From positions 539 through 29,748 of the forward strand of contig CAZBSB010000002.1 in assembly GCA_964494535.1 (NCBI GenBank): a stretch of 29,210 nucleotides of DNA. Reading direction: 5' to 3'. Source of the stretch: an uncultured Rhodospirillales bacterium (GTDB lineage Bacteria > Pseudomonadota > Alphaproteobacteria > UBA9219 > RFNS01). This document shows positions 12,579-29,210 of the stretch, in pieces. Every line of letters starts with the position of its first letter. Position 1 is the stretch's first letter. The notes under the pieces were generated by a model that did no database searches, was not told the origin of the DNA, and was given only the letters and a program-made list of their open reading frames with translations. The position numbers and the translations under genes are program-made.

Positions 12579-12649
12579 TCGCTTGATGAACCAATCCAGG
12601 CCGCGCAACGCCATCATGGTTTGCGCGGCCTTTTTTCTGGGAGATAACG

Positions 12650-13201: not shown

Positions 13202-13204
13202 ACC

Positions 13205-13927
13205 TTACGCATTGGCGCCGCCATCCACCGGAATGGTGGCGCCGGTGACGTAGCTGGCCTCGTCGCTGGCGATGAAGGCGATGACGTTCGCCACCTCTTC
13301 CGGCTTGCCGGCGCGCTTCATCGCCGCCACTTGGTCGGCGCCGTCCGGCAGCATGTCGGTGGCGATGGGCCCGGGCAGAATGGCGTTGACCGTGATGTTT
13401 TGCAGCGCCAGATCCTGCGCCCAGCCGCGCGTCATACCCGCCACCGCGAACTTCGTCATGGCATAGGCGCTCACGCCCGGGAAGATGCCGCGCTCACCCA
13501 GCACACTGCTGATATTGATGATGCGGCCGCCGGCTTTCAGGTGCTTGATGGCCGCTTGGGTGGTGGTGAAGACCGCGCGGACATTGACATTGAGCTGATG
13601 CTCAAACTGCGCCGCGTCAATCGCGCCGATGGCGCCGCCGCCTTCGAACACGCCGGCATTGTTGACCAGGATATCGAGCTTGCCGAACTGCTTGACCACG
13701 GTCTCCACCATCGCGCCCATGGCATCCGGCTGGCCGGCATCGGCCTTGATGACCAGGGCTTTGCGCCCCAGTGCCTTGATAGCTTCCGCCACCTTTTCCG
13801 CCGCTGCCGCGGATTTGCTGTAGGTCAGCGCGACGTCCGCCCCTTCCTGCGCCAGTTTCAGCGCCGTAGCGGCGCCGATGCCGCGCGCCCCGCCGGTGAC
13901 CAAAGCGACCTTATTGACTAAACGCAT
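13205..13927 (-). CDS. Classical short-chain dehydrogenase/reductase
   Basis: Motifs TGGARGIG, NNAG, YAMTK (YxxxK), PGPIATDM; GAGGAG SD. Confidence 0.93.
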   Translation of the reverse strand: MRLVNKVALVTGGARGIGAATALKLAQEGADVALTYSKSAAAAEKVAEAIKALGRKALVIKADAGQPDAMGAMVETVVKQFGKLDILVNNAGVFEGGGAIGAIDAAQFEHQLNVNVRAVFTTTQAAIKHLKAGGRIINISSVLGERGIFPGVSAYAMTKFAVAGMTRGWAQDLALQNITVNAILPGPIATDMLPDGADQVAAMKRAGKPEEVANVIAFIASDEASYVTGATIPVDGGANA

Positions 13928-14031
13928 AACATTCTCCTCGGATGAATGGATTATCGACCTACATCAAGTAGGTGCAGGCCTGTCGGTTTCAAGGACGGCT
14001 AAACAGCGCAGATTGCCGCAGCAGATTAAAG

Positions 14032-15099
14032 CTAAGCCGCCAATGCTTTATAGACAGTGGCCAACGCATGGCTCTCGCGGCTGGCTGCGCGCAACGCTTC
14101 CAGGGCGCGCGCCTGCTTGGCTGCTTCACCCGCCAGCTTCGCCACCAGCCTCTCCGTCTCACGCCAGTAAAGCTCACGCGCCTGAATGAGCGCGAAGCAT
14201 CGCCCTGGCCGGATCAACGCGTCATCGAGATCGCCGATATTCGGCAGATTGGTGGAAAAGATGATCTTCCGCCCCTGCGCCCGTACCACGCCGTCGGCAA
14301 TCGCCAGAAACCGATGCAGATGCTCGTTGCCTTCCGCGCGCGGCCGCAAAAGATGGTCGGCATCCTCCACCACGAAGGCGTCGTCATAGCCGGTGATGAA
14401 TTTGACGTAGATTTCGTCATTCTCCAGCGCGCGCTTGTCCCCGGTATAGAGCGCCTGCGCCTCGCCGCCATTGCGCCGCGACAGCGCGCCTAGAATGGCG
14501 CGGATCAGGCGCGTCTTGCCGGTGCCCGGCGGTCCCTGCAGCACCAGCACGGTTTCCGGCGCCGCGATATAACGGGCGACAAAATCCTGCACGCCGCCGG
14601 TGATTTCGGGATAGGCCTCGTCATGCAGAACATCATCCGCCATCTCCTCGATGCTGGCGCTTTCCAATTCATTTTTTCCAGTCAGAAAATGCCAATCGAT
14701 CGAAAACATCGGCTCACGGATGCGCTGCGCCTCGACCAGCGCCAAAACTTTTTGTTTTGCCGTCTCCGCCTGCGCAATGCTCTCTGCCCAAAGGTGAAAG
14801 CGGCAGGAGCAGTAATCTGCCTTGCGGCTGCCTTCCGCCGTAATGAACAACCCCGGCGCGTCCAGGATGACCGTGTTGGCGCCGACGCGCTGCGCCGCCC
14901 AGCCCAGGCTGAGCGCGAAATCGTCGAATAAAGCCTCTTGCTCGCGGCGCGCCGCGAACCGCAGCGTGCGGTGGACGGGATAGCGCGAGACGCCCGCTTC
15001 CAACGCCTGCGTCAGCCGCGTCTTGAGCAGAAAATCCGTCAGACCCCAGACCTCAAGCGCGATATTGGGCTGGCAGTTGCGTGCGGTATTGTTTTGCAT
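14032..15099 (-). CDS. Stand-alone single-domain AAA+ ATPase with uncharacterised N-terminal domain
   Basis: Walker A GPPGTGKT, Walker B FVVEDAD, SRH STN...LDDALIRPGR. Start chosen at ATG 15099 because of AAGAGG upstream; the ORF track starts at 15129. Confidence 0.85.
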   Translation of the reverse strand: MQNNTARNCQPNIALEVWGLTDFLLKTRLTQALEAGVSRYPVHRTLRFAARREQEALFDDFALSLGWAAQRVGANTVILDAPGLFITAEGSRKADYCSCRFHLWAESIAQAETAKQKVLALVEAQRIREPMFSIDWHFLTGKNELESASIEEMADDVLHDEAYPEITGGVQDFVARYIAAPETVLVLQGPPGTGKTRLIRAILGALSRRNGGEAQALYTGDKRALENDEIYVKFITGYDDAFVVEDADHLLRPRAEGNEHLHRFLAIADGVVRAQGRKIIFSTNLPNIGDLDDALIRPGRCFALIQARELYWRETERLVAKLAGEAAKQARALEALRAASRESHALATVYKALAA

Positions 15100-15202
15100 G
15101 GGAGCCTCTTGATAACAGGCGCGCACCATAGAGAAGTTGCCTATCCCTGGCTATCTTTTCCGTCATATCGCCCTATAATTGGCGCTTAAACAGGAGCATG
15201 GC

Positions 15203-16012
15203 GTGAAAATTCTATTCTTGGGCGATATTGTCGGCCGGTCGGGGCGGGAGGCGGTGGCGAAGCATCTGCCCGCACTGCGCGCCGCGCTGCAGCCGGATGT
15301 GGTGATCGCGAATGGCGAGAACGCGGCCGCCGGCTTCGGTATCACGCGCGCTATCGCGCAGGAGATGTTTACGCTGGGCGTGCATTGCGTCACCACCGGC
15401 AATCATGTGTGGGATCAGCGCGAGCTGCTCGGTCAGATTGACCAGGAGCCGAACCTGCTGCGCCCGCTGAACCTGACGGAAGGCGCGCCGGGGCGCGGCC
15501 ACACCATCATCACCACGGCGGCAGGGCAGAAAATCCTGATCCTCAATGTTATCGGCCGCCTGTTCATGGAAGCGCATGATGACCCTTTCGGCGTCACGCA
15601 AAAGTTCCTCGCTGCTTACCGGCTAGGGCAAAGCGTGGCGGCGATCTTCGTGGATTTCCACGCCGAGGCGAGTTCGGAAAAAATGGCTTTTGGGCATTGT
15701 CTTGATGGCAAGGTTTCCGCCGTCGTTGGCACCCACACCCATGTGCCGACGGCGGACGCGCTCGTGCTGCCGCGCGGCACCGCCTATCAGACCGATGCCG
15801 GCATGTGCGGGGATTATGACAGCGTCATCGGCATGAAGAAGGACATCCCCATCGCCAAATTCACCCGCAAATTGCCGACCGACCGGCTCAGCCCCGCCGA
15901 TGGCGAAGCCACGCTCTGCGGCTGTTATATCGTGACGCACGACCAAACCGGCCTCGCGCAATCCATCCGCCCCGTTCGCGTAGGCGGCAAACTGGCGGGG
16001 ACGGAGGGCTAG
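15203..16012 (+). CDS. ymdB: YmdB/TIGR00282-family metallophosphoesterase
   Basis: Motifs ILFLGDIVG, NGENAAAGFG, TTGNHVWD, DFHAEASSEK, GTHTHVPTAD, TDAGMCG; GTG 15203 follows AGGAG. Confidence 0.93.
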   Translation: MKILFLGDIVGRSGREAVAKHLPALRAALQPDVVIANGENAAAGFGITRAIAQEMFTLGVHCVTTGNHVWDQRELLGQIDQEPNLLRPLNLTEGAPGRGHTIITTAAGQKILILNVIGRLFMEAHDDPFGVTQKFLAAYRLGQSVAAIFVDFHAEASSEKMAFGHCLDGKVSAVVGTHTHVPTADALVLPRGTAYQTDAGMCGDYDSVIGMKKDIPIAKFTRKLPTDRLSPADGEATLCGCYIVTHDQTGLAQSIRPVRVGGKLAGTEG

Positions 16013-16027
16013 CGAGGCGGACTTTTT

Positions 16028-16174
16028 CTCTCCCCCTGCGGGATTTGAATGCAAAGCATTCATGGATAGAGAATCTGTGCGTTGTTACGCGCTAGATTCT
16101 CTTGGTGAGGGGTTCGATAACAAACATTGTACGCGCTGAACCAACCCCTCCCCTAACTCCTCCCGCAAGGGGAG
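16028..16174. repeat. Long palindromic REP/MITE-like element truncated by the IS
   Basis: Left arm CTCCCCCTGCGGGA (16030-16043) matches the reverse complement of right arm TCCCGCAAGGGGAG (16161-16174) at 13/14. An inner GGTGAGGGG/CCCCTCCCC pair and internal hairpins at 16046-16062 and 16068-16102 are also present. Confidence 0.7.
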
Positions 16175-16241
16175 TGACGTTCTCCCGGCCAATGTCGCCA
16201 AGATGAGGTAGAGTCTGCAACCCTGAATAAGGAGCAGACTG

Positions 16242-16505
16242 ATGAAGCAGCGGTTTGCGGAAGAACAGATTATTCGGGTATTGAAGGAAGCGGAGGCTGG
16301 GGCCAAAACGGCGGCTCTGTGCCGCAAGCATGGGATCAGCGACGCGACGTTCTATAACTGGAAGGCCAAGTATGGCGGCATGGAGGTGTCGGACGCGAAG
16401 AAGCTGCGCGCGTTGGAAAGCGAAAACGCGAAGCTGAAGAAGCTGGTCGCGGATTTAAGCCTCGACAAAGTGGCGCTGCAGGATCTGCTCTCAAAAAACT
16501 GGTAA
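16242..16505 (+). CDS. IS3 transposase OrfA (HTH)
   Basis: [11 protein letters not shown]...[21 protein letters not shown]...[15 protein letters not shown]. Confidence 0.93.
16493..16499 (+). other. -1 programmed ribosomal frameshift site A_AAA_AAC
   Basis: CTC TCA AAA AAC TGG TAA. A -1 shift enters the orfB frame ([15 protein letters not shown]). Confidence 0.85.
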
Positions 16506-16528
16506 AGCCCAAAGCGAAGAGGAAGGCC

Positions 16529-17365
16529 GTGGCGTATTCGAAGGAACGCTACGGCTTCTCCAAGCGGCGGGCTTGCCGAGTGGCCGATGCCTCACGACGG
16601 CGGATCAGCTATCAATCACGCAAGGACGACCATGCTCTACGCGAAGCGATGCGGCGTATCGCGGCTGAGCGGCGGCGGTTCGGCTATAAGCGGATTGCGG
16701 TGATGCTGCGCCGTGAAGGGCATGTTCACAACCTGAAGAAGATATGCCGCCTCTACCGTGAAGAAGGACTGATGGTGAAGCGCCGGAAGGGCCGCAAACG
16801 GGCCCCTGGCACACGGTTGCCGTTGCCGAAGCCGGACAGCCTTACTCAGGTGTGGTCGCTGGATTTTCTGAGCGACCAACTCTCGGATGGCCGCCGGTTT
16901 CGTATTCTGAGCGTCATGGATCAATGCAGCCGGGAGTGTCTGACGTTGGCGGCGGACACGTCGACTGGCGGGGCGCGGGTTGCCCGTGAGTTAGATGTCC
17001 TTGTGGCTCGTTACGGCAGGCCGCTTTGCATCGTCAGTGACAATGGCACCGAGCTGACCAGCCGCGCTATTCTCCTCTGGGCACAACAGAACGGCGTCGA
17101 ATGGCATTACATCACACCGGGCAAGCCCAGGGAAAACGGCTTCACCGAGAGCCTCAATAGCAGGATCAGGGATGAATGCCTGAACGAGCCAGTGTTCGAG
17201 AGCCTCGCTGCCGCTCGGCGGCTCATTGCGACGTGGCGGCAGGATTACAACAATATCCGGCCCCATGGCAGCCTCGACAACCAAACCCCGGCGGCCTGCC
17301 GCGCCGGTCTGCGCTCGACTCTTGCGGTCGCGCAGCCCGTCGCTTGCTCATGGAGCGGAACATGA
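16529..17365 (+). CDS. IS3 transposase OrfB (DDE domain), normally expressed as an OrfAB fusion
   Basis: Motifs [40 protein letters not shown]. Confidence 0.92.
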
Positions 17366-17485
17366 CTATCTTAACCTAAGGACTCTATCTCCCTATGGCG
17401 ACACAATGGGGAAGACGTCAGCACTTATTGTACTGCATTTTTCAGGCAACGTCGTGGCTTGATCTGTGGATTGCGAGCATGAACA

Positions 17486-17842
17486 ATGAGTCCCGAAGAT
17501 AAACCGAAACTCTTTAGCCCCGGAATTGGTAAGCGTGGAATGAATGAACTTCACTACGCTGCATACTGTGGCAGTGTTGGCGATTTACAGCAGTGCTTGA
17601 ACGCAGGATTTGATCCGAACGTGAAGGACGAATATCGCGGTTACACAGCCCTTCATTGGTTGGCGGATATGGCTGCAACCGGAGGGCCACGCGTTGAGAT
17701 GTTAAAATTACTTGTATCAAAGGGGGCTGATATAAATCGAGTAAGTGACACAGGCGAAACTGCTATGTCTCTTGCTGCTAAGGCCTCCGGACAAGGGGAT
17801 GATTTGGTTCTTGAGCTTGTAGCTCTGGGGGCCAAACATTGA
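17486..17842 (+). CDS. Small ankyrin-repeat protein
   Basis: Repeats LHYAAYCG...GFDPNVKD, GYTALHWLA...LLVSKGADIN, GETAMSLAA; AT-richer codon usage. Confidence 0.85.
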   Translation: MSPEDKPKLFSPGIGKRGMNELHYAAYCGSVGDLQQCLNAGFDPNVKDEYRGYTALHWLADMAATGGPRVEMLKLLVSKGADINRVSDTGETAMSLAAKASGQGDDLVLELVALGAKH

Positions 17843-18157
17843 AGGGTTGCTTAGTGCCCGACTTCATTCCGTTGTCTATGACATAAACAATTGATTTTTA
17901 TTCCAGAATAATTTGGTGGACCGACCAAGGTCATTCTGGGCACTTTTGGTTAATAAATACGTTTTTTGCATAAATTACCGCGCCTTGCGTGCGTTGAGCC
18001 TCAAGCCAAATTCAATAACAAGAGAGGTCTGTCGTAGATAAGTTTCCTTATATACGACAGAACCACAAGAGAACAAATGGATCGGATCGATCCGAACTAT
18101 CTCAAGGTGAGCGTCTCAAGTTGTAACACTAGAAGATTGTTTGGATACTTTAAGGGA

Positions 18158-18171
18158 TTGATGCAGATCAA
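18158..18171. promoter_or_regulatory. FNR/DNR box upstream of the phasin-like gene
   Basis: TTGAT-GCAG-ATCAA is a perfect TTGAT-N4-ATCAA. Confidence 0.8.
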
Positions 18172-18292
18172 GGATAAATCGTCAGACTCAATCCAAGCTT
18201 GCAGTAGGAAGGAGTACGCCAGGTGCTTGACTGGACGCCTCAGCCCCGTGCAGGTCGTTAACGATGGGATAATCGGTCAGAGGAGAACTAAT

Positions 18293-18772
18293 GTGACCAA
18301 TCAAGCAGGACAAGCAAAACAAAAAACGACGTTTGCAGATCAGCCGGATGAGTTCGTAACGGCATCTGCTCTGGCTGATGCGGCGGAAACTGAGAACGCG
18401 ACACCGGGGACATCGTTCGATGAGATTTTGGGATCATACAAAATGATGGCGGGAAGTGCGTGGCAGCATCTGGACACAATTAGTGTTCAGCACATGCAGA
18501 CCTGTCTGACAGTTACGGACCAGACAATGGCGAACGTTGATAAGATGACGGGTCTGGCGCTTGCTTTTGCGCGCGGCACGATTGCACAAGCGGCATCGGC
18601 GACACCGCTGACGCCAGTGTGGCCGGTTCCTGGCGAGTGGCTGGCGACGAACAAGAGCTTCTGCGATAGTGCGATCCGGCAACTCGAAATGGTGCTGGCG
18701 CTGCAGAAAAAGCTTACCGAAAGCGCAATGCTGCCTATTCGGCGTTCCGTCAGCAGGAATTCTCAAGGTTAA
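18293..18772 (+). CDS. Phasin-like (PHA granule-associated) helical protein
   Basis: GTG 7 nt after GAGGAG. The amphipathic pattern (TMANVDKMTGLALAFARGTIAQ...DSAIRQLEMVLALQKKLTESAMLPIRRSV) resembles PhaP. The longer ORF from 18077 would run through the FNR box and is probably not real. Confidence 0.5.
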   Translation: MTNQAGQAKQKTTFADQPDEFVTASALADAAETENATPGTSFDEILGSYKMMAGSAWQHLDTISVQHMQTCLTVTDQTMANVDKMTGLALAFARGTIAQAASATPLTPVWPVPGEWLATNKSFCDSAIRQLEMVLALQKKLTESAMLPIRRSVSRNSQG

Positions 18773-18865
18773 TGCGGTATTTACCGCAGCCATGCAACCG
18801 GATATTGCCCGCGGGAACTTCTGTTTGTCATTGGCAATGTTGGCGCTGCATCTTAGTATCGTGCC

Positions 18866-19948
18866 ATGAGCAATGAACGATATGCACGACAAACAGTATT
18901 AAAAGAGATAGGCGTAAAAGGGCAAGATCACCTCGCGCGAGCGTCCGTACTCTGTGTCGGCATCGGCGGCCTAGGGTCGCCAGCCGCGCTCTATTTGGCA
19001 GCGGCGGGCGTTGGGCGCATCGGCCTGGCTGATTTTGATGTCGTCGATGAAACCAATCTGCAACGCCAGATACTTTATACCAGCGAGGATGTTGACAGGC
19101 CAAAAGTACTCCAGGCCAGAGACAGGCTTGCCGCCTTCAACCCGCAGATAAAGATAGAAGCGCACAATACCGCGCTCTCTGCCGCTAACGCTTGTCAGCT
19201 TTTTGAAGCCTACGACGTCATTCTTGACGGTACCGATAATTTTTCAACAAAATTTCTCATCAACGACGCGGCCTACAAAATGGGCAAGCCATGGGTGTAT
19301 GGCGCGATACAGAATTTTGACGGCCAGGTCGCCGTGTTCGGCTCGGCAGCAGGTTCGTGCTACCGTTGTTTGTATCCTGAACCGCCCAAGGCAAAAATTA
19401 TGAACTGTGCGGAAGCGGGCGTGCTTGGGGCGGTTGTTGGTATTGTAGGGGTAACGCAGGCCTTGCAGGCCATACAGCTGCTTGTGGGCGACGGGGGTTT
19501 TGAGCCCTTAATCGGCAAGCTCTGGTTGCTTGATGGCAAGACAATGACCACACAAACGCTGGCGGTAGCCAGGAATCCGCAATGTGCGGTTTGTGCCCAT
19601 GCCAGAGATGCTGTTATTCTCCCGCAGGATGCTGCGGGGTGCGTTGCCGTGAGAGAAGTCGCCGCGAGCAAGCTGGCCACGCTGCCAAGCAACTTTGTCA
19701 TCGTCGATGTGCGTGAACAGAGTGAGTGGTCGCAAGGGCATGTTCCGAATGCGGTGCTTGCCCCGCTGTCATCTTTGGAAGCTGGTGACGATTGTGTCCT
19801 GCCGCGCGACGTTCTGCTGGTTGTCTATTGCCAAAGGGGCGTGCGCAGCCGTCGCGCAGCCGAAATCCTTGCGCAACGCGGCTATCAGAACATGTTAAGC
19901 CTTGCCGGAGGCTATCAGGCCTGGTTGCAGCAGGGTCCGCAGACATAA
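18866..19948 (+). CDS. moeB: MoeB/ThiF adenylyltransferase fused to a rhodanese domain (MoeZ-like)
   Basis: Motifs RYARQ, GIGGLGSP, DETNLQRQ, DGTDNF, CYRC, CAVC; rhodanese DVRE..EW..GH and YCQRGVRS. Confidence 0.95.
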   Translation: MSNERYARQTVLKEIGVKGQDHLARASVLCVGIGGLGSPAALYLAAAGVGRIGLADFDVVDETNLQRQILYTSEDVDRPKVLQARDRLAAFNPQIKIEAHNTALSAANACQLFEAYDVILDGTDNFSTKFLINDAAYKMGKPWVYGAIQNFDGQVAVFGSAAGSCYRCLYPEPPKAKIMNCAEAGVLGAVVGIVGVTQALQAIQLLVGDGGFEPLIGKLWLLDGKTMTTQTLAVARNPQCAVCAHARDAVILPQDAAGCVAVREVAASKLATLPSNFVIVDVREQSEWSQGHVPNAVLAPLSSLEAGDDCVLPRDVLLVVYCQRGVRSRRAAEILAQRGYQNMLSLAGGYQAWLQQGPQT

Positions 19949-19969
19949 ACCGAGAAGATTATGGCGGAG

Positions 19970-20314
19970 CTAGGAAGCTTGCGCAGCCTCCTGTCGTGGT
20001 CGCTTGTCGTTGCGGATATCGACCTGTACGATGAGCTCCAGACCACCGCTCATCAGACGTATGCCATCGCGATTCCTGCCGATGTTTCTGAGTAACGCTA
20101 AGGCTTCCTTGGGGAGTGTGAGAGTCAAAGCAATCGTTTGGCCGCTGTTGGTTGCGGCGAAGTGCGGCTGTTGACCGTCTTGCAAGATTTCGAGACCGAT
20201 GGCGAGGGGACGAGTCGGCAGCGCCATGCGCAGTCTCTGGCCAGCTTCCAGCTGCTGGAGATCGTCGGGCGATATTTTGCAAGTAAGGGAATGCTCGGCA
20301 AGCTTGAGATTCAT
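19970..20314 (-). CDS. Uncharacterised 114-aa protein, last gene of the moa operon
   Basis: Its ATG at 20314 overlaps the mobA TGA (ATGA). The sequence MNLKLAEHSLTCKISPDDLQQL...LELIVQVDIRNDKR looks protein-like. Confidence 0.7.
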   Translation of the reverse strand: MNLKLAEHSLTCKISPDDLQQLEAGQRLRMALPTRPLAIGLEILQDGQQPHFAATNSGQTIALTLTLPKEALALLRNIGRNRDGIRLMSGGLELIVQVDIRNDKRPRQEAAQAS

Positions 20315-20835
20315 GATTGGGTTAACTCCTGCCATTCTGGATGGGTGTTGAAGTTCCGCATAAAACCCGCAGCGCCGTCCGGGAGAGCGATTGGCTTGAT
20401 TGCGTACAAAGCCAGAAGCTCACGAACCGAAGGCGCATGGCTGGGGCGGTATGGCGGCACAAAATAGGCGGGCAGGGGATAATCCCGGTAATAGGATCCT
20501 CCCGGCTGAAGGAGCAGCCGTTGCAGGAGTTCGGCGTTCAGCAGCGGCATATCGACCGGCACGAACAGGTACCCCGCCGGGGCGGGGTTGGTTGTCATGA
20601 TATTGGCCATGGCAATGCCTGGCCCCTGAAAGGGTGTGTGGTCGGGCAAGCCATCATAACCTTGAACGGTGCCGCTGATCAGGGGCTGGGCAATACCAAT
20701 CTGCTGCAGCAGGGCAATCATATGCGCGACCAATGGCTGGCCACGATAATCAAGCATGGCTTTGTTTTGCCCCATCCGTGATGAGCGCCCCCCGGCGAGG
20801 ACGACCCCCGCGATCGATTGCTGCGCCTTAGCCAT
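20311..20835 (-). CDS. mobA: Molybdenum cofactor guanylyltransferase (compact MobA-like)
   Basis: Motifs LAGGRSSRMGQNKA, FQGP, VPVDMP, NFNT. ATG 20835 overlaps the end of moaE. Confidence 0.85.
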   Translation of the reverse strand: MAKAQQSIAGVVLAGGRSSRMGQNKAMLDYRGQPLVAHMIALLQQIGIAQPLISGTVQGYDGLPDHTPFQGPGIAMANIMTTNPAPAGYLFVPVDMPLLNAELLQRLLLQPGGSYYRDYPLPAYFVPPYRPSHAPSVRELLALYAIKPIALPDGAAGFMRNFNTHPEWQELTQS

Positions 20836-21265
20836 TGAGCGAGTGCCCCGGCAACCAGGCGCTTTTACCGTCCAGGTAGTGTTCCTGCTTCCATATCGGA
20901 AGCCGGGTTTTGATGGCTTCGATGACATGACGACATGCCGCAAAGCAGTCCGCCCGGTGCGCCGTACTCACCGCGATGAGAACGCTGATCTCGCCAACCG
21001 CCAGCTGCCCTTGAAAATGCGCCACATAGAAATGGGCGCCCGGCCACTGGGTGCCTCCTTCCTCACAAATGGCCTGCATTGTGCGGAGCGCGAGCGGTCC
21101 ATGAACATCATAAGTGATGCCGCTGACTTGCTTGCCTGCGTGGTGGTTGCGCACGACACCCGCAAAAAAATCGATGGCCCCGTGTCCGGGGTCGCGCACC
21201 GCATCCAGCGCGGCACTCATCGTGAGTGGTGTTTGCAGTATATGCACGGCGATTCGTGACGGCAC
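20828..21265 (-). CDS. moaE: Molybdopterin synthase catalytic subunit
   Basis: Motifs GAIDFFAGVVRNH, LAVGEISVLIAVSTAHRADCF, IKTRLPIWKQE. Confidence 0.95.
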   Translation of the reverse strand: MPSRIAVHILQTPLTMSAALDAVRDPGHGAIDFFAGVVRNHHAGKQVSGITYDVHGPLALRTMQAICEEGGTQWPGAHFYVAHFQGQLAVGEISVLIAVSTAHRADCFAACRHVIEAIKTRLPIWKQEHYLDGKSAWLPGHSLNG

Positions 21266-21267
21266 GG

Positions 21268-21516
21268 CTAGCCTCCACAGACCGGCGGCAGGATGACAAG
21301 CGTGCGAGAATCAACCGCGAGTTGAGCGTCATTGGACAAAATTGCGATATTGTCCGCGAGCACCGAGTCTTCGACGAGTTGGCGATGCTCAGCGCCCAGC
21401 GCACGCCATAACGCTGTCTTGAGCGTAGCGACGGTCGAACCGGCGGGGATTTCCAGCTCTATTCCGCTCCCCATAGTGCGAAACACGCCAAAATATTTGA
21501 TATGAACTGTTGTCAT
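21268..21516 (-). CDS. moaD: Molybdopterin synthase sulfur carrier
   Basis: MTTVHIKYFG...VILPPVCGG, with the C-terminal di-Gly; lies between moaC and moaE. Confidence 0.88.
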   Translation of the reverse strand: MTTVHIKYFGVFRTMGSGIELEIPAGSTVATLKTALWRALGAEHRQLVEDSVLADNIAILSNDAQLAVDSRTLVILPPVCGG

Positions 21517-21530
21517 CTTGCTGTCCGCAA

Positions 21531-22544
21531 TCAAGATTGTTGTTTGATTCTGCTGAGAGCCGTGCCGATAAAGGGCCGCAGAATATCCCAGCACTCTCGA
21601 ACAGCCTTCAGGCTGCCTGGCAGGGCAATAATCAGCGTCCCATCCTTCATGCCGGCGGTCATCCGCGATAACCAGGCCGTCTCCGTGATGTGCTGGCTTT
21701 CCTGCCGCAGCAGGTCGCCCAGACCATCCAGCATTTTATCGCATAATGCGGCCAACACATCGGGGGTGACATCGCGGGGGCCGGGGCCCGTGCCCCCGGA
21801 GGCCAGCAGGATATCGGGTTGATGCTGGCGAATGATCTGGCGCAGCGAAGCGGCAATTGTGGTCATATCGTCAGGCACGACCTGGTAGCAGGCGACGTCG
21901 GCTCCGGCCGCGGCGAGTGCTGTGCGCAGAAAAGCGCCAGATTCATCGGCATAGGTGCCGCGGCTGGCCCGGTCGCTCATGACCAGCACTGCCGCGCTGG
22001 TGCCGGCCAGCTCGTTTTGCGGCAATTGCTGCCGCAGCCAGTCGGGAATTCCAGAAGGATTAATCCAGAGTCCGCTTTTACCCCCGCTTTTGACCAGCAG
22101 CCGAATAGTGTGAATGGATAAATTGGGGTCCACCCCTTTGGTCAAATCCCAGAGCGTCAGCAATGCCGCCTGGGTGCCGCAAAGCGCTTCCATCTCGACA
22201 CCTGTTTTGGCATGAGCGCGCACCTGGCAATAGGCAATGACGGCCTGGTCGTCGTCCTGGAGCTCAAAGTGGACGGTTGCTTGATCGAGCGGCAGCGTAT
22301 GACAGAGCGGTATCGTATTCGGGGTATTCTTGGCGGCCATGATGGCGGCTGCCTCTGCCAGGGCGAGGACATTGCCCTTTGGCAACGTACCGGCCTTCAG
22401 GGCGGAATATGCTTCTGTTCCCAGCGCAATGCTGCCGCTTGCCACCGCCATGCGCCAGGTCGGACGTTTGCGTCCAACATCAATCATCTTGAACTGGGCA
22501 ACGCAGGTATCAGGAAACTGCAGGAAAGCCGAACTGGGCATCAT
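21531..22544 (-). CDS. moaC: Bifunctional MoaC plus MogA/MoaB fusion
   Basis: N-half has MIDVG.K, IPLCH, KTGVEMEAL. C-half has VMSDRASRG...DESG, GGTGPGPRDVTP, LPGS. Confidence 0.93.
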   Translation of the reverse strand: MMPSSAFLQFPDTCVAQFKMIDVGRKRPTWRMAVASGSIALGTEAYSALKAGTLPKGNVLALAEAAAIMAAKNTPNTIPLCHTLPLDQATVHFELQDDDQAVIAYCQVRAHAKTGVEMEALCGTQAALLTLWDLTKGVDPNLSIHTIRLLVKSGGKSGLWINPSGIPDWLRQQLPQNELAGTSAAVLVMSDRASRGTYADESGAFLRTALAAAGADVACYQVVPDDMTTIAASLRQIIRQHQPDILLASGGTGPGPRDVTPDVLAALCDKMLDGLGDLLRQESQHITETAWLSRMTAGMKDGTLIIALPGSLKAVRECWDILRPFIGTALSRIKQQS

Positions 22545-22549
22545 GATGA

Positions 22550-23539
22550 TTATCCTCCGATTGACGCCAAATGATGGGTCGCGCCGCTGTCTTGATGATG
22601 CAGCCCGTGCCCGGCGCGTTTATGTTGCAGGAGACTGACGATCCGGCTCTGCAGCTCCGCACCCTGCTCGTCATGCTGCAGCCAGCGCCGTAGTGAATAG
22701 CCTTCCTCTCCAAACAGGCAAAGGTGCAGATTGCCGCGTGCCGAAACCCGCAGGCGATTGCAGCTCTGACAAAAATCCTTGCCATAAGGGGCAATGATGC
22801 CAATGCGCCCTATGCCGCCCGGATGCATATATTCGATTGCCGGTCCGTCGTCATGCGCACGGATTGTCTGCTGCCACCCGCGCGCCCGCAGCGCACTGGT
22901 AATAAAGTCACTCGAGACATGATACTGCGCGAAATAGTCCTTGTTATCCAATGTCCGCATAAGTTCGATGAAGCGCAGGGTGAGATTATTGGTAACGACA
23001 AAATCGATGAAGGCATCCAGCTCGCTGTCATTCACGCCCTTGAGCAGAACCGTATTGATTTTGATCTTCTGAAATCCGGCATCGCGGCAGGCGGCAACCC
23101 CATGCAAAATTTCATTCAGTCGGTCATGGCCGGTGATATGACTAAAAATCGCGGGACGGAGCGAGTCGATGCTGATATTGATGGATTTGATGCCTGCGGC
23201 CGCATACGCAGCGGCGCGCTCACGCAGCCGGTAGCCGTTCGTTGTGACCGCGACCGTCTGGATGCCAGGAATACGACTGACTGACCGGGCGATTGCGACA
23301 AAATCCGTTCGTAAAGTCGGCTCCCCGCCGGTGAGGCGAATTTTTTTCATCCCTAATGCTGAAAAGGCTGTCACTAGTCGTGTAATTTCGTCCAGCGACA
23401 GAAAATCGTCGCAGCCTGATTTTGTGTAGCCGTTGGGTAGACAGTAGCTGCAGCGAAAATTACAAACGTCCGTCAGCGACAGACGGAGGTAATAAAATCG
23501 GCGACCGAAAGCATCCGCCAGGCCGGTGTTCGCTGTCAT
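22550..23539 (-). CDS. moaA: GTP 3',8-cyclase MoaA (radical SAM)
   Basis: Motifs YLRLSLTDVCNFRCSYC, FCQSCNRLR...LHLCLF and a GG end. The true start is ATG 23539, after AAGGAG. Confidence 0.97.
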   Translation of the reverse strand: MTANTGLADAFGRRFYYLRLSLTDVCNFRCSYCLPNGYTKSGCDDFLSLDEITRLVTAFSALGMKKIRLTGGEPTLRTDFVAIARSVSRIPGIQTVAVTTNGYRLRERAAAYAAAGIKSINISIDSLRPAIFSHITGHDRLNEILHGVAACRDAGFQKIKINTVLLKGVNDSELDAFIDFVVTNNLTLRFIELMRTLDNKDYFAQYHVSSDFITSALRARGWQQTIRAHDDGPAIEYMHPGGIGRIGIIAPYGKDFCQSCNRLRVSARGNLHLCLFGEEGYSLRRWLQHDEQGAELQSRIVSLLQHKRAGHGLHHQDSGATHHLASIGG

Positions 23540-23544
23540 ATGGC

Positions 23545-23647
23545 ATCTCCTTTCCAGACAGGGAGGCCGCGGCGTTTCCCCCGCAACCCCGGCCAAGAAG
23601 CCATATCGGTGACAACCGACTTAGGCTCAATGGCTTCGGAGCGATCC
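23545..23647 (-). promoter_or_regulatory. Moco (molybdenum cofactor) riboswitch-like leader of moaA
   Basis: mRNA reads AUCGCUCCGAAGCCAUUGAGCCUAAGUCGGUUGUCACCGAUAUGGCUUCUUGGCCGGGGUUGCGGGGGAAACGCCGCGGCCUCCCUGUCUGGAAAGGAGAU. It carries the CUCCGA, CCUAAG, UGGCC, GAAA-loop arm and CCUCCC...UGGAAAGG signatures, and the SD lies in the basal stem. Confidence 0.85.
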
Positions 23648-23706
23648 GGCGTTCTTCTCCGGATAATTCTTCAGGCGCATAGTGGCGGTAAAGCGCCTGG
23701 CGTAAC

Positions 23707-23720
23707 TTGACCACAATCAA
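23707..23720. promoter_or_regulatory. FNR/DNR box between the moa operon and the Crp/Fnr regulator
   Basis: TTGAC-CACA-ATCAA within the dyad ACTTGA-N6-TCAAGT; -10-like hexamers at class II spacing on both strands. Confidence 0.8.
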
Positions 23721-23785
23721 GTCGCGCCGCCTTTTATTTCAATAGATTAACACTGCAAGCAGGGTCGATTCTATTCTGCGGCACG

Positions 23786-24541
23786 ATGCCGCAGTATGTG
23801 AGCCTGAGGATGCAACAGCAAGTGCAGATCATCATGGATATTGCCCGACTCGTAAAGAACACTGCAATGTTTCAAAGCATTGAAGATACCGATCTCGCCT
23901 TGCTGCTGGAGCGTGCGCATCAGCGCCCCTATCAGAAGAACCGTGAGATCTTTGCCATGGGCGATGTAGCGGAGGCCTTCTATGTCGTTCTTAAAGGTTG
24001 GGTGAAGCTGTATCGCTTGTCGCGCGATGGCGGAGAGTCGGTTATTCATGTCCTCGGCCCCGGCGAGTCCTTTGCAGAAGCGGCCGTGTTCAATAACAAC
24101 AGAACCTATCCCGTTCATGCTCAGGCGCTGGAAGAGACTGTGCTGCTGGAAATTCCACGCAGCTTCTTCGTGCAGAAAATTGAGGGGGACAGTCAGTTCG
24201 CGTTACGTATCCTTGCCGCAATCGCATCACGGCAGCACTATCTGGTACAGCAAATCGAGCAGGTCACGACGCGGACGGCACCACAAAGAATTGGAGCCTT
24301 CCTGCTAAGATTTTGTGAACACAAAGAGGGTAGTGCGCGTGGTTTCTGGACGGTCAATCTGCCCTATGACAAATCGGTCATCGCCCATCGGCTTAGCATC
24401 CGGCCAGAGACATTCTCGCGTGCCCTGGCAAAACTATCGCCCTATGGCGTGAAGACCAATCCCAGCGGGGAGATAACGATTACCGATATGATGGCGTTGA
24501 CGGATTATTGCGATATCTCGCTGTTTGGCAAGCCGTGCTGA
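23786..24541 (+). CDS. Crp/Fnr-family regulator, DNR/NnrR-like (no FNR Fe-S Cys cluster)
   Basis: Motifs GWVKLYRLS.DG.E, GESFAEAAVF, and HTH LPYDKSVIAHRLSIRPETFSR (ExxSR). Start uncertain (23786, 23810 or 23834). Confidence 0.88.
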   Translation: MPQYVSLRMQQQVQIIMDIARLVKNTAMFQSIEDTDLALLLERAHQRPYQKNREIFAMGDVAEAFYVVLKGWVKLYRLSRDGGESVIHVLGPGESFAEAAVFNNNRTYPVHAQALEETVLLEIPRSFFVQKIEGDSQFALRILAAIASRQHYLVQQIEQVTTRTAPQRIGAFLLRFCEHKEGSARGFWTVNLPYDKSVIAHRLSIRPETFSRALAKLSPYGVKTNPSGEITITDMMALTDYCDISLFGKPC

Positions 24542-24562
24542 TATCCACTCCGTGCCTGGGGC

Positions 24563-25726
24563 TCAGGCTTCCTGGTTGTCGATCCGTCGGCTGACGAGCA
24601 TGGGCGCGTAAGCAAAGAAATAGAGCCCGAAGGCTGCTGACCACAAGGCAGCGGAGATTATGATGATGGTACTCATCTGGTCTGGCAGCATCATGGGGCC
24701 AAAGACTCTGAGCAAAGTGGCGCCCTGAATCAGGCCGAAGGCTACCACTGTCAGTCTGGAGGCATGCTGCTGCCGGCCTGTGTGGCCAAGAGTCACGCGG
24801 CACATCATGCCGAGACACATTGAACCGATACACCCTGCAGTTAACGCGTGAATAACACTGGCTAGGGTGGTGACGCCAATTCCGGTTAAAGCAAGCAAGA
24901 AGAGGCCAAGAACAAGCCAGCTGTAGCCAACATGCAAAATCCACAGCATCGGGTCACGTAAGGCGGGCATGGTGTGATAATGCCGCATGCGAAGACCGTG
25001 AACGGCTGCGGCTGCACCCGCCGAGGCGCTGAGCCAAAGACTGTTGGGGGCGAATATCAACGATAAGGTGGTCGCAATCAGCGTCATGAGCGCGATGAAG
25101 TCTGTTCGGGGCTGATCGGTCTGAAAAGCCATGATGCCCTTACGACGCAGCGCCGCCACCGTGAAAGATGGAATAATCCGCCCGCCAATGAGCGAAACCA
25201 TCGTCAGTATCATCATCAGCGCCACATAGAGTGACGTACGGCTAAGAGTTAGCAGAAAATATAAGTCAGAACCAAAAAGCACGCCGAGGAGAGTCAGAAA
25301 AACAAAATTGCGTTTGCTCCAACTGCGGATGAGCGGAATAGACAAAGATATTGTCAGGGCAGGGATAAAGGCCGTCGTGAACAGAATGGCAAGCCAGGGC
25401 GGCAAGCCCATATCAAAATTCACGGCGATACGGGCGATCATCCACAGCAAACATAGCAGCGCTAGGTGGAGCTGCCGAGCCGGCGCGCCGCCGGTCCAGT
25501 TGGCAACGGCAGTCAGCAGGAAGCCGGCGACAATTGCGATGGTGAAGCCGAAAATCATTTCGTGCGCATGCCAGGAAACCGGGTCGAGAAATGACGGCCC
25601 GGGCACGACGATGCCGGCGTAAAACCCGCCCCAAAGAACGAGGCAAAGCAGGCTGTAGAGCGAACCAAAGAAGAAAAACGGGCGGAACCCGCGCGCCAGA
25701 AAGGGGTGTGCCAAAAGACGGTTCAT
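24563..25726 (-). CDS. nnrS: NnrS family membrane protein (NO stress)
   Basis: Motifs GFRPFFF, WHAHEMIFGF, GFLLTAVANWTG, GGRIIPSFT, HALTAGCIG, RVTLGHTGR. Confidence 0.95.
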   Translation of the reverse strand: MNRLLAHPFLARGFRPFFFFGSLYSLLCLVLWGGFYAGIVVPGPSFLDPVSWHAHEMIFGFTIAIVAGFLLTAVANWTGGAPARQLHLALLCLLWMIARIAVNFDMGLPPWLAILFTTAFIPALTISLSIPLIRSWSKRNFVFLTLLGVLFGSDLYFLLTLSRTSLYVALMMILTMVSLIGGRIIPSFTVAALRRKGIMAFQTDQPRTDFIALMTLIATTLSLIFAPNSLWLSASAGAAAAVHGLRMRHYHTMPALRDPMLWILHVGYSWLVLGLFLLALTGIGVTTLASVIHALTAGCIGSMCLGMMCRVTLGHTGRQQHASRLTVVAFGLIQGATLLRVFGPMMLPDQMSTIIIISAALWSAAFGLYFFAYAPMLVSRRIDNQEA

Positions 25727-25742
25727 ACCATTTCTCTAAAAA

Positions 25743-26540
25743 CTATTGCACGAGAGGCGAATTTGCTGCCTCGAAATTATAGCCGCTTATCTGGGCGCGC
25801 CCGGCAAGGAGCGTGACATACTGATGGAAGGCTCGGTTCCAGCACTGCTCGTTCAGATATTCTTTGATCCAGGTGGCTACCGCAGAAAATGGCAACTGCC
25901 GCCCTTCGGCGCGTTTGTTGACGCGAATAATATGGTAGCCAACGCTCGTGGCTACCGGCTCTTTGCTCAGTTCACCCTCCTGCATCTGCAGGAGCGCGCT
26001 TTCAAATGCCAGCATGGTTTGCCCGTGGCTGATTTGCCCCAAGTGTCCCCCCGCGGACGCCGAGGAGCATGCTGATTCCGATCGTGCCAGCTGTTCGAAT
26101 AGCCCTGGCTCGGCGCGCAGCCTGGTCAAAGCAAGGTTGGCGCGCTCAAGGGCTTCGGCGCGCACCTTGGCCTGTTCTGGCGGCGCGAGGTAAAGAATAT
26201 GAGACACATCAAAGATTGGCGAGGTCAGGAACTTTTTCTGGTTGTTCTCATAGTAACGCAGGCAGGTCGCCTCGTCCGCCTCCGGAATTTTAATCTCTGA
26301 CTCCAGAAGATTATCAATGATCTGGTCTAAGTCTTTAATATTGTCCTGTCTTGAAGCTGACAAATAGCCCGCCTCTGTGGCGCGTTGCAAAAGCAATTCG
26401 CGGATGACCAGCGAGCGTTTGGCCGCATGTTGCGCCTCCGTGAGGCTGCCAGCTGGATGGTATTGCACCTCGGCATCAATATCAGTTTCAGATATTTTGC
26501 AGCCATTAATGATAATACCCGGGGTTAATGAGCGCATCAC
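25743..26540 (-). CDS. PpiC/parvulin-type peptidyl-prolyl isomerase (NifM-like, nar-associated)
   Basis: Motifs VSHIL, FEQLARSESACSS...GGHLG, FE.AL, PVATSVGYHII; overlaps the narI stop. Confidence 0.9.
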   Translation of the reverse strand: MMRSLTPGIIINGCKISETDIDAEVQYHPAGSLTEAQHAAKRSLVIRELLLQRATEAGYLSASRQDNIKDLDQIIDNLLESEIKIPEADEATCLRYYENNQKKFLTSPIFDVSHILYLAPPEQAKVRAEALERANLALTRLRAEPGLFEQLARSESACSSASAGGHLGQISHGQTMLAFESALLQMQEGELSKEPVATSVGYHIIRVNKRAEGRQLPFSAVATWIKEYLNEQCWNRAFHQYVTLLAGRAQISGYNFEAANSPLVQ

Positions 26541-27223
26541 GAAGCCCTCTTGCGGACAATCTGGTAAGGCCGGAACACAAAGCCGAGCGGGGCGCTCAAC
26601 ATATGAACCAGCCGTGTGAAGGGGAAGACCAGCAGGATGAATAAGCCAAGCGTGATGTGCAGTTTGAATACCAAGGCTGTGTCAGCGATAAATTCATGCG
26701 CTCCGCCGCGGAAGGTCACAATGTGCTGCGCCCACTCCATAAACTTGACCATCTCATGACCGTCCAGATGCTGCATGGATACAGTGATGGTGCATAAGCC
26801 AATCAGAAGTTGACTCAGCAGCAGGAAGAGCACGGCAATATCGGCAAAGGAACTATTGGCCCGGATGCGCGGATCAAAGAGTCGCCGATGGAGCAGGAGC
26901 AGCAACCCCACAAGGCAAAAGATGCCGGCAATGCCGCCGGCCGTGATGGCCAGAATCTGTTTGGCACCGTGTGAGACCCCCATGGCGTCAAAAACCGCGA
27001 TGGGGGTAAGCAGCCCGACAAAATGCCCGCCGAGAATGACCAGGATACCCGTATGGAAGAGGACGCTGCCCCAGATGAGCTGGCGGCGACGCAGGAGCTG
27101 GCTTGATTTGCTGCGCCAGGAGAATGGGTCGCGATCAAAGCGCAGCAGTGTGCCAAGCACGCAAGCGCCGAGCGCAATATAAGGAAAAATCTGGAACAAG
27201 AAAAAATCTAGACCGCTACTCAT
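26537..27223 (-). CDS. narI: Respiratory nitrate reductase gamma subunit (cytochrome b)
   Basis: Motifs FPYIALG, RFDRDPFSWRSKSSQLL, LFHTGIL, HITLG, FPFTRLVH. ATG 27223 overlaps the narJ TGA. Confidence 0.96.
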   Translation of the reverse strand: MSSGLDFFLFQIFPYIALGACVLGTLLRFDRDPFSWRSKSSQLLRRRQLIWGSVLFHTGILVILGGHFVGLLTPIAVFDAMGVSHGAKQILAITAGGIAGIFCLVGLLLLLHRRLFDPRIRANSSFADIAVLFLLLSQLLIGLCTITVSMQHLDGHEMVKFMEWAQHIVTFRGGAHEFIADTALVFKLHITLGLFILLVFPFTRLVHMLSAPLGFVFRPYQIVRKRAS

Positions 27224-27930
27224 ATCTTGACCTCCTGTGTCGCGCTGAGACGTTCTTCGATCGTGGCCAGCATGGCCTGAGCCTTCGGACAACCGTCGGA
27301 AATGCCGGTCGTTTGTGCTGTGTTGGTGAAGGCAAATTGCTCTTCCCACGCCGCGTCAAGCTCGGCAGCGGCAGCGGGGGCGCCTGAAGCCTGCTGCAGA
27401 GCTATCGCCAGCTGGGCGGGATCAGGGGCGCGTACCGCCATTTCGACCAAGCCGTCAAACAGAACGGCATAGGGAGATTGGCGTCGATTCAGCCGTTCAC
27501 CAATCGCGGCGACGACATTGACGGCGCTATCTAGATGGCCGCGGACAACTTCAAGCGGCTGCGTGCTAAGAAATTCGAGGAACAACGGCAAGTAGTCAGG
27601 CAGCTCATCGGTAGCGATATCGAGACCGGATTGCCGGTAGAGTTCCAGCAAATCGACCATGGCCTGCCCGCGATCGCGTGAATCGCCGTGAACGTGTTCA
27701 AAAAGATGCAGCGAGAGGGAAGGCGTGCGGTCAAACAGATCCGTATACGCCTCCTGCAGGTCGAGCAGATCTTCGTCCTGCTGTGAGCGGAGTAAATGAA
27801 TAATCTTTTTCTGTGTCGGGACGGTCAGCCAGCCTTCCTGCTGGAGAAGCCTCGCACAGCCATCAATCATTCCAGGCTCCTGTGATTCCGGATAGGACAG
27901 CAAACGGCCAATGACTTTCAACGTCAGCAT
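27220..27930 (-). CDS. narJ: Nitrate reductase maturation chaperone
   Basis: Motifs LLSYP, LQEAYTDLFDRTPSLSLHLFEHVHGDSRDRGQAMVDL, ELPDYLPLFLEF. Confidence 0.96.
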   Translation of the reverse strand: MLTLKVIGRLLSYPESQEPGMIDGCARLLQQEGWLTVPTQKKIIHLLRSQQDEDLLDLQEAYTDLFDRTPSLSLHLFEHVHGDSRDRGQAMVDLLELYRQSGLDIATDELPDYLPLFLEFLSTQPLEVVRGHLDSAVNVVAAIGERLNRRQSPYAVLFDGLVEMAVRAPDPAQLAIALQQASGAPAAAAELDAAWEEQFAFTNTAQTTGISDGCPKAQAMLATIEERLSATQEVKI

Positions 27931-27939
27931 TGATATCTC

Positions 27940-29210
27940 CTATCCGCACTGCCCGCCGCAACAACCACCGCAGCCGCTTGATTTCTTGGGCGGAGACTCG
28001 CTCGCATTGCGGGGTGCCAGCTCCGGCTCGTAGTGATCGCGGGTAAAAATGGTGTTGATACGGTTGTCCTTGGTTGAGCCGCTCTGGCCACGGCTTTGTT
28101 TCGGCTGTTCAAACAGGTCAAACTTGCTGTTGCTATGGCCAGCACACCCATTGCCGAAGCTAAAGCCACAACCGCCGCTTTCGCCATAAGCGTCCAGCGT
28201 TTCCTCACGGTGCCCGGTCGGAATGACATACCGATCTTCATAATTGGCAATCGCCATAATCTTGTACATGTCTTCGACCAGATCTGGCGTCAGCCCGGAT
28301 GCATAGAGTACCCCAGTGTCCACTTTGCCTTCGATATGTTTGCCGCGCATGTAGTGACGCATGGCCATCATGCGCTGCAGCGCCAGACGAACAGGTTGTT
28401 CTTTGCCGCCAGTCAGCATATTTGCCAGGTACTTTATCGGAATGCGCATATCATCCAGGTTTGGCATGACCCCATTCTGGGGAGCATCCAGTTTCCCTGC
28501 GTTGAGCGCAGATTGAACCGGCGAGAGCGGCGGAATATACCAAACCATCGGTAGCGTCCGGTACTCCGGGTGCAGGGGGAACGCCACTTTCCAGTCGATT
28601 GCCATTTTATAGACGGGCGATTTCTGCGCCGCTTCAATCCAGTTGTCCGGAATACCATCGCGCCGTGCCTGGGCGATGACTTCGGGGTCATGAGGATTGA
28701 GGAAAATGCGACACTGCGCCTCATAAAGGTCTTCGTTCTTCTCCACGCTGGCGGCTTCTTCAATCCGGTCTGCGTCATAGAGAATGACACCAAGATAGCG
28801 GATGCGACCAACGCAGGTTTCCGAGCAGACCGTCGGTTCGCCGTTTTCAATGCGCGGATAGCAGAATGTGCACTTCTCTGCCTTGCCGGTCTGCCAATTG
28901 TAGTAAATCTTTTTGTAAGGGCAGCCAGAGATACACATGCGCCAGCCGCGGCATTTATCCTGATCAACCAGAACAATCCCGTCTTCTTCGCGCTTGTAAA
29001 TCGAGCCGGACGGGCAGGATGCAACGCAGGTCGGGTTCAGGCAGTGCTCGCACAGACGCGGCAGATACATCATGAAAGTGTTTTCAAATTCACCATAGAT
29101 GTCTTTTTCCACATCGGTGAAGTTGTAGTCTTTCTTGCGATGCTCAAACTCCGTACCCAGGATTTCTTCCCAGTTTGGCCCCCAATTCACTTTCTCCATC
29201 CGCTGCCCTG
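27940..29210 (-). CDS. narH: Respiratory nitrate reductase beta subunit (5' part outside the window)
   Basis: Motifs WGPNWEE, LPRLCEHCLNPTCVASCPSG, CRGWRMCISGCPY, CTFCYPR, LHPEYRTLPMVWY. The frame is open to the window edge (GQRMEK). Confidence 0.97.
   Translation of the reverse strand, partial: GQRMEKVNWGPNWEEILGTEFEHRKKDYNFTDVEKDIYGEFENTFMMYLPRLCEHCLNPTCVASCPSGSIYKREEDGIVLVDQDKCRGWRMCISGCPYKKIYYNWQTGKAEKCTFCYPRIENGEPTVCSETCVGRIRYLGVILYDADRIEEAASVEKNEDLYEAQCRIFLNPHDPEVIAQARRDGIPDNWIEAAQKSPVYKMAIDWKVAFPLHPEYRTLPMVWYIPPLSPVQSALNAGKLDAPQNGVMPNLDDMRIPIKYLANMLTGGKEQPVRLALQRMMAMRHYMRGKHIEGKVDTGVLYASGLTPDLVEDMYKIMAIANYEDRYVIPTGHREETLDAYGESGGCGFSFGNGCAGHSNSKFDLFEQPKQSRGQSGSTKDNRINTIFTRDHYEPELAPRNASESPPKKSSGCGGCCGGQCG

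Follow-up and report, generated by a model that had tools for sequence, protein, structure and literature searches.

The 29,210-nt stretch of DNA analyzed here (the window; positions 539 to 29,748 of contig CAZBSB010000002.1, GenBank assembly GCA_964494535.1, from an uncultured Rhodospirillales bacterium) ends in narH, the gene for the iron-sulfur (Fe-S) subunit of nitrate reductase, and the encoded protein carries a C-terminal tail that finishes in four clustered cysteines. This tail is a real, conserved clade feature and no assembly artifact. In some relatives, a small free protein with a similar Cys-rich end is encoded between narH and narJ. A textbook enzyme subunit here bears an accessory module that is clade-wide, has not been described and is outside any described family. 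Among the possible functions we tentatively prefer a flexible metal-thiolate arm, for Fe/Fe-S or a different soft metal, which would help to load or protect the cofactors of the enzyme.

The window protein is a bona fide NarH, in which all of the NarH-defining features that we checked are present. The minus strand of the window encodes, at 27940-29208, a 422-residue fragment with zero internal stops. An earlier note on this DNA, made from the sequence alone, had described the tail and missed both the strand of the gene and the truncation of its 5′ end by the end of the contig. The missing first codons, with the first Cys group (CIGCHTC...), are on another contig of this assembly, C15, at its start and directly after narG. 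The order narG-narH-narJ-narI is present, with narJ and narI downstream in the window and narG upstream on C15. Pfam finds only canonical NarH domains on the whole fragment (Fer4_11 and Nitr_red_bet_C), and the NarH equivalog model TIGR01660 scores it at 677.7 bits, versus a cut-off of 524 (a full-length close relative of 552 amino acids, 86% identical over the tail region, scores 954.5 bits). Groups II-IV of the Cys that belong to clusters FS1-FS4 can be read in the fragment (CEHCLNPTCVASCP; CRGWRMCISGCP; CTFC...CSETC). Chains of Escherichia coli NarH in the PDB (1Q16 chain B and others) match it with E = 2e-177, and the family and fold region, the ..GCGF.FG.GC..F.LF motif, the FS1-FS4 Cys groups and the narGHJI operon are shared. 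The features of the gene, its tail and the neighboring operon genes are as follows:

27940..29208, minus strand: 3′ 422 codons and stop of narH (Fer4_11, Nitr_red_bet_C, TIGR01660, match to E. coli NarH)
28045..28110, minus strand: conserved clade-specific linker, residues 367-388 (EQPKQSRGQSGSTKDNRINTIF), with invariant alignment columns
27982..28044, minus strand: variable hydrophilic spacer, residues 389-409 (TRDHYEPELAPRNASESPPKK), which differs in length and sequence among lineages
27943..27981, minus strand: Gly/Cys tip, residues 410-422 (SSGCGGCCGGQCG), with four Cys, the last one penultimate and followed by Gly-COOH
27931..27942, minus strand: narH stop TAG, overlapped by the Shine-Dalgarno sequence AGGAG of narJ, and 9-nt spacer (read from the sequence)
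27220..27930, minus strand: narJ, nitrate reductase assembly chaperone (PF02613, Nitrate_red_del)
26537..27349, minus strand: narI, gamma subunit (PF02665, E = 6e-79)

The fragment terminates in ..PPKKSSGCGGCCGGQCG, with the stop codon TAG at 27940-27942 on the minus strand. After ..GNGC..DLF, 56 residues follow (E367-G422; window 27943-28110), close to the approximately 55 that had been noted before, and they end in GCGGCCGGQCG; the codons quoted at that time (TGC GGT GGT TGT TGC GGC GGG CAG TGC GGA TAG) match the sequence. The alignment with E. coli NarH ends at residue 368 of the query and 496 of the 512-residue chain, and the 18 E. coli residues that follow the aligned Phe contain no Cys, so the net gain in the window protein is about 38. 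Compared with E. coli NarH, the window protein has a 12-residue linker insertion, a variable spacer and the 4-Cys tip. The narJ ATG lies at 27930, 9 nt past the narH stop, and its AGGAG overlaps the TAG. The listed ORF (open reading frame) of narI overlaps narJ, and the true narI start is therefore probably downstream of the listed GTG.

The same tip occurs elsewhere in the genus, in two species-level genomes and on two further public contigs of metagenome-assembled genomes (MAGs; loci L002, L003, L006 and L007). Against each of these four assemblies, the 13-residue tip shows two synonymous and no nonsynonymous differences, and the spacer holds three of the six nonsynonymous differences found in each comparison (423 codons). 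These substitution counts indicate purifying selection on the tip and no such selection on the spacer. The frameshift artifact against which the earlier note had cautioned can be set aside, given four independent assemblies with only synonymous changes in the tip. Beyond the genus, we used the C-terminal 83 residues as query against 5.8 billion proteins, which returned 70 NarH (full-length members have 515-568 residues, and nearly all bear a comparable tail), and we scanned species-representative genomes, which gave 70 loci. The pooled set consists of 114 distinct tails, read downstream of the motif NR[VI]NT[IL]F. At least two Cys are present in 107 of them, which we count as tips comparable to that of the window.

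Among these 107 tails, all of which have two to four Cys, four are found in 56 and three in 48. In 86 tails the last Cys is the penultimate residue and in nine it is the terminal one, and 64 tails end in CG. Gly makes up 45%, Cys 22% and Ser 16% of the residues from the first Cys onward. The spacing of the Cys is not fixed (mostly 1-4 residues), and the tail extends 15-56 residues past the linker. At least three His occur in 14 tails, often as runs (of the HGHMHQHH, HHNHDRDHKHH and HSHDH types). The linker itself, ..RG.SGS.K.NR.NT.F, is nearly invariant in relatives, with strictly invariant R, G and N-R-x-N-T-x-F columns. Five related loci retain the linker and the operon and have zero Cys in the tail.

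Four Cys on an Fe-S subunit, exactly the number seen in 56 of the 107 tails, could be taken to indicate a stable fifth center (rubredoxin-like Fe(Cys)4, [4Fe-4S] or [2Fe-2S]) that extends the electron wire or provides a second point of electron entry or exit. We regard this as very unlikely: 48 tails have only three Cys, neither their spacing nor their distance from the fold (15-56 residues after the linker) is constrained, the Gly/Ser-rich segment offers no hydrophobic shell, five lineages have lost the tip, and no Fer4, rubredoxin or CCG-domain model matches the tail. The earlier note had offered a metal or Fe-S site, a redox or NO sensor and a cluster-delivery arm as possibilities. The composition does fit a tethered site for metal or thiol chemistry (three or four Cys in 104 of 107 tails, 45% Gly and 16% Ser, His-rich spacers in 14), although it does not separate the three. 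Of these, an additional cluster fixed in the electron wire is the least probable, since neither the spacing of the Cys nor the length of the tail is constrained and five lineages lost the Cys tip while the operon was kept.

The tail is restricted to a clade. Named records that bear it are almost all from Micavibrio or Micavibrio-like alphaproteobacterial MAGs, and some are labeled Pseudobdellovibrionaceae or Bdellovibrionales at NCBI. One sequence with such a tail has the label Micavibrio aeruginosavorus. Records labeled Saccharibacteria, Nitrosomonas and Alcanivorax (L013, L024 and L026) have nar operons that nest, at short distances, in the Micavibrio-like NarH clade; this suggests that the odd labels are binning errors or reflect recent transfer. 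A search of representative proteins gave one NarH cluster plus fragments and chimeras, and the frequency of the tail was hence estimated from 400 evenly drawn Pseudomonadota genomes. NarH was found in 51 of these besides that of the window (54 copies). None of the 50 readable 3′ ends has a Cys past the G.GC motif or the NRxNTxF linker, and the clade-type linker is absent from all 50. Together with its absence from the E. coli PDB chains, this supports the point of the earlier note that the tail is not known from characterized NarH. Among 40 relatives searched from the order of the window organism, NarH was found only in its genus and in one other genome, where it has no Cys tail (L004). In the literature searched (NarH tails, CCGSCS, Micavibrio nitrate reductase), we found no description of a Cys-rich NarH tail.

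The operon was probably acquired horizontally as part of an island, with the tail included, given that the nar/molybdenum cofactor (Moco) block (window 16000-29210) has a GC content of about 55% (54-59%), compared with about 62% (60-63%) in the housekeeping part (1-16000), and that it begins beside an IS3-type integrase (16529-17365).

Of 72 related loci, 21 have a micro-ORF of 45-60 codons, with a ribosome-binding site upstream, between narH and narJ. Examples are:

L025:6180-6350, micro-ORF
L009:1886-2026, micro-ORF
L018:6179-6325, micro-ORF
L010:1892-2071, micro-ORF

The encoded micro-proteins have a short hydrophobic motif at the N terminus, a spacer rich in Lys, Gln and Glu, and an invariant core, CCG[SG]CG, that is accompanied by a His no more than about six residues away; their end is of the type His + CCGxCGG. 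All 20 that were aligned have three Cys and a His within about 6 residues, that is, four ligands (the 21st, from L033, was read from the raw frame only and is outside the alignment). The gap between narH and narJ is bimodal, being 3-21 nt in most loci or else 152-201 nt. Each of the long gaps contains a micro-ORF, and intermediate gaps (50, 50 and 108 nt) have no ORF; L011 and L013, where the locus ends before narJ, also have one. In the window, the gap is 9 nt (27931-27939) and leaves no space for a micro-ORF, and this counterpart in relatives was not visible to the earlier note, which had only the window. Sorted by the type of NarH tip, the loci are distributed as follows:

NarH tip with CC (the window type): 10 loci, micro-ORF in 0
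NarH Cys tip without CC: 57 loci, micro-ORF in 21
NarH tail without Cys: 5 loci, micro-ORF in 0

In no locus do NarH and a micro-protein both have a CC-type tip, which belongs to NarH in 10 loci and to the micro-protein in 21 (n = 72; Fisher's exact test, p = 0.024, with the kinship of the loci ignored). On a tree of the NarH core, the CC-type tip takes three changes, at least two of which are forced by well-supported branches, beside lineages with the micro-ORF. In L028, a truncated locus, the NarH tail resembles the C-terminal half of the micro-protein (KP.PH...CCGGCG). From this evidence, which is at the level of the motif, we read the tip as one that may work at the NarH C terminus either fused or free.

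It is fair to ask whether such a tail needs a function at all. An extension of low complexity, variable in length and repeatedly lost, might simply be tolerated, or selection might act on the nucleic acid, for narH-narJ coupling, given that the narH stop overlaps the narJ Shine-Dalgarno sequence. We find either version highly improbable, because 107 distinct tails of a long-diverged clade have kept the reading frame, the number of Cys and their place at the end, tip changes within the genus are synonymous only, and relatives maintain a separate gene, with its own ribosome-binding site, for a like tip. The mRNA around the tip shows no more folding than shuffled sequences (z 0.06), and RNA structure was rejected as an explanation of the GC-rich tip.

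Metal binding, the identity of the metal and the role in assembly or protection are what we infer for the metal-thiolate arm, and the following should be read in that sense. The conserved linker probably packs on the enzyme, and the variable hydrophilic spacer would bear the three to four Gly-spaced Cys, with His in some lineages. These residues might enclose either an ion of a soft metal or a small Fe-S unit. Nitrate reductase needs about 21 Fe, which makes Fe(II)/Fe-S the most attractive candidate; metals of the Zn, Ni or Cu class are also possible. The arm would be an accessory outside of the FS1-FS4 electron wire, which may hold metal or hand it over during or after NarGH assembly, near the NarJ step, or may shield exposed clusters. 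The free His/CCGxCGG micro-protein of relatives seems to be the functional equivalent of this arm. That the Cys count is held at three to four while spacing, length and spacer drift fits a chelate, which would need a number of ligands rather than a geometry. We also count in favor of the metal arm that CC-type NarH arose at least two to three times beside micro-ORF lineages. The tip is the last-translated part of NarH, with its stop coupled to narJ through the Shine-Dalgarno overlap.

Comparable tails are known from metal-handling proteins. SlyD and HypB have unstructured His/Cys-rich tails that bind and deliver Ni or Zn (PMC7055735), and the CC...CH-COOH tail of E. coli FeoB was shown experimentally to be a ligand of Fe(II)/Zn(II) via Cys and His (PMC10647171). 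As in the NarH case, these are disordered, Cys-rich cytoplasmic C termini (with His in several NarH lineages) on proteins that handle metallocenters, and the His-rich runs of 14 NarH tails resemble metallochaperone tails such as those of SlyD and HypB. The terminal CC + C + H of FeoB parallels the CC-type NarH tips and the His/Cys3 set of the micro-protein. However, SlyD, HypB and FeoB are chaperones or transporters, whereas NarH is itself the redox subunit of a client enzyme, and the likeness is one of composition, with no detectable homology. One micro-protein has a weak match to the SlyD tail region (E = 0.054). The micro-protein also recalls TIGR04101, the “CCGSCS motif protein” of NCBIfam (function unknown), a small protein with a CCGSC-type end. 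Membership in that family was rejected: three NarH tails gave no match at E up to 1, micro-ORFs of relatives reach 9-18 bits, below the cut-off of 28 bits, and no TIGR04101 member was found in five tail-bearing genomes. A search with the tail feature in the ESM Atlas gave no usable match. An AlphaFold2 model of a full-length NarH from the same genus, made from a 47-sequence alignment, had a mean pLDDT (predicted local distance difference test score) of 43 and was not used to place the tail.

The last eight residues of the window protein, GCCGGQCG, bring up a different kind of chemistry. In Plasmodium falciparum thioredoxin reductase (TrxR), the C-terminal redox center GCGGGKCG-COO- is a flexible arm in which the terminal Gly carboxylate matters (PMC6272602). 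Six of eight positions are identical, and in both proteins a penultimate Cys is followed by Gly-COOH. The NarH tail could thus be a redox-active swinging arm, whose two terminal Cys would switch between the dithiol and the disulfide state and either tap electrons from the NarH Fe-S clusters or exchange with cytoplasmic thiols, thioredoxin or S-nitrosothiols. We consider this unlikely, although it deserves to be taken seriously. The last Cys is terminal or penultimate in 95 of the 107 tails, 64 of which end in CG, as in TrxR- and DsrC-type arms, and a TrxR-related chain is the sole PDB match of a sister tail (E = 1.8, nonsignificant). However, the TrxR arm is part of an FAD/NADPH flavoprotein, a disulfide reductase in which the buried CVNVGC is its partner, whereas the carrier here is NarH, and no partner redox center is known near the NarH C terminus. 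The TrxR-type C-x4-C-G spacing is present in the window protein only if the first Cys of the CC is counted, and in 10 of the 107 tails; the spacing of the last pair ranges from one to more than eight residues, and ring size strongly tunes disulfides. One or two Cys would suffice for such an arm, yet three or four are retained, and the His-rich spacers and the conserved micro-protein His would be left without explanation.

The setting of the operon offers the dithiol arm some further support. S-nitrosothiols form when Nar makes NO from nitrite, and genes for NnrS and a Crp/Fnr-family regulator adjoin the operon. Glutathione genes, GCS2-type gshA (PF04107) and gshB (PF02955), were clearly found in one of five tail-bearing genomes (G442), so a local protein thiol could matter; they were not clearly found in G441, G443 and G444, the genomes of L041, L045 and L025, or in G000, the window's own, with the limits that E. 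coli-type GshA was not searched for and that G000 is 83% complete. A link of the tail to the absence of glutathione was not retained: it is a loose observation only, and the one genome with gshA and gshB also bears the tail.

Like tips occur on only two other real proteins of the window's own genome, and their GCCGGGCH ends are a point in favor of the dithiol arm. MsrA (contig C137:3435-4043, plus strand; Pfam PMSR) ends in ..GGGCCGGGCHV, with three Cys. Relatives' MsrA ends carry a single Cys (..GGG.C[HR].), at what we take to be the expected position of the resolving cysteine. The MsrA tip is, by this comparison of sequences, a local expansion of the resolving-Cys tail, and its likeness to the NarH tip is therefore partly chance, which weakens the argument. 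The other is a thioredoxin-like protein of 90 amino acids (contig C176:4029-4301, plus strand), which has a CPVC active site and ends in ..TGCCGGGCH; it matches the MTH895/ArsE family below the cut-off, and its gene adjoins one for a MarR-family regulator. The radical-SAM protein HpnH of a further genome from the order (TIGR03470, 536 bits; L169:274-1527) has a C-terminal extension of ~77 residues that ends in ..MCCGSCGGH. This is the same tip as that of the nar micro-protein, and HpnH likewise is an Fe-S enzyme, which we count in favor of the metal arm. When the DNA of the order's 71 genomes was scanned for the CCGxCGG pattern, matches were about as frequent as in the control, and a single one, that of HpnH, was a real C-terminal tip. 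MoaE of the window has no Cys tail.

Several observations weigh against the metal-thiolate arm. No Pfam model matches the tails at E up to 10, including Fer4, rubredoxin and the CCG domain (PF02754, HdrB/GlpC type), and there is no NCBIfam match or match to a known metal-binding family either. The clusters of E. coli NarH are loaded cotranslationally in an enzyme that has no comparable arm (PMC10609526). Evolution can dispense with the tip, as indicated by the five related loci that are Cys-free and retain linker and operon, and the last eight residues resemble the known TrxR redox motif even more closely. The equivalence of the fused and free forms is a motif-level likeness combined with a phylogenetically nonindependent distribution. 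In sequence searches, neither short free proteins resembling the window tail nor longer proteins with a fused micro-protein turned up, and an actual gene fusion is thus conjectural. A-type Fe-S carriers (PF01521) are present in all five of the tail-bearing genomes checked, and the idea that the arm substitutes for a missing carrier of this type was rejected on that ground.

A more specific version of the metal arm takes into account that NarJ governs the steps after insertion of the NarH clusters, namely loading of FS0 (a His/Cys3 [4Fe-4S] cluster) and then of Moco (PMC10609526; PMC5123574). The tip, fused or free, would be a dedicated hand-over device that supplies the NarJ-dependent loading of FS0 in NarG with iron or a small Fe-S unit. 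This we hold to be improbable. As an alternative to hand-over, the tip may tap electrons by thiol chemistry and connect the Fe-S wire of NarH with thiols or S-nitrosothiols in the cytoplasm.

The remainder of the island holds further genes of the nitrate reductase and Moco systems. A PpiC-type peptidyl-prolyl isomerase (25743-26540, minus strand) follows directly after narI, and NifM is among its best NCBIfam likenesses (E = 3e-18, below the cut-off); the next gene is that for NnrS (24563-25726), and the divergent gene for the Crp/Fnr-family regulator lies at 23786-24541. A Moco riboswitch (RF01055, 53.4 bits, gathering threshold 36) is located at 23531-23653 (minus strand), upstream of moaA. 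Two Moco genes are fusions, one of MoeB/ThiF with a C-terminal rhodanese domain (18866-19948, plus strand) and one of MoaC with a MoaB/Mog-type domain (21531-22544, minus strand). MoaD (in the ORF at 21268-21594, with a weak, subthreshold ThiS-family match) and MoaE (20828-21265) lie between the fused Moco genes and MobA. Two ORFs of the window have no Pfam match, one of 231 amino acids (18077-18772, plus strand), which is inside the island and has no NCBIfam match either, and one of 423 amino acids (9190-10461, plus strand).

NarGHI is the textbook model for the assembly of complex iron-sulfur molybdoenzymes, and the delivery of FS0 and Moco to NarG has been described only via NarJ. Even if the tip were inert, annotation would be corrected, since these tails are no frameshift artifacts. 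If the tip were a hand-over device, it would be a cofactor chaperone built into its client enzyme. The recurrence of Cys tips on unrelated redox proteins (HpnH and the thioredoxin-like protein) would make the tail one more case of a portable module. A selected arm of three or four Cys across a clade, alternating with a free Cys-tipped micro-protein encoded before narJ, points to an unrecognized accessory function of the enzyme, for which metal hand-over, protection and thiol redox chemistry are the candidates.

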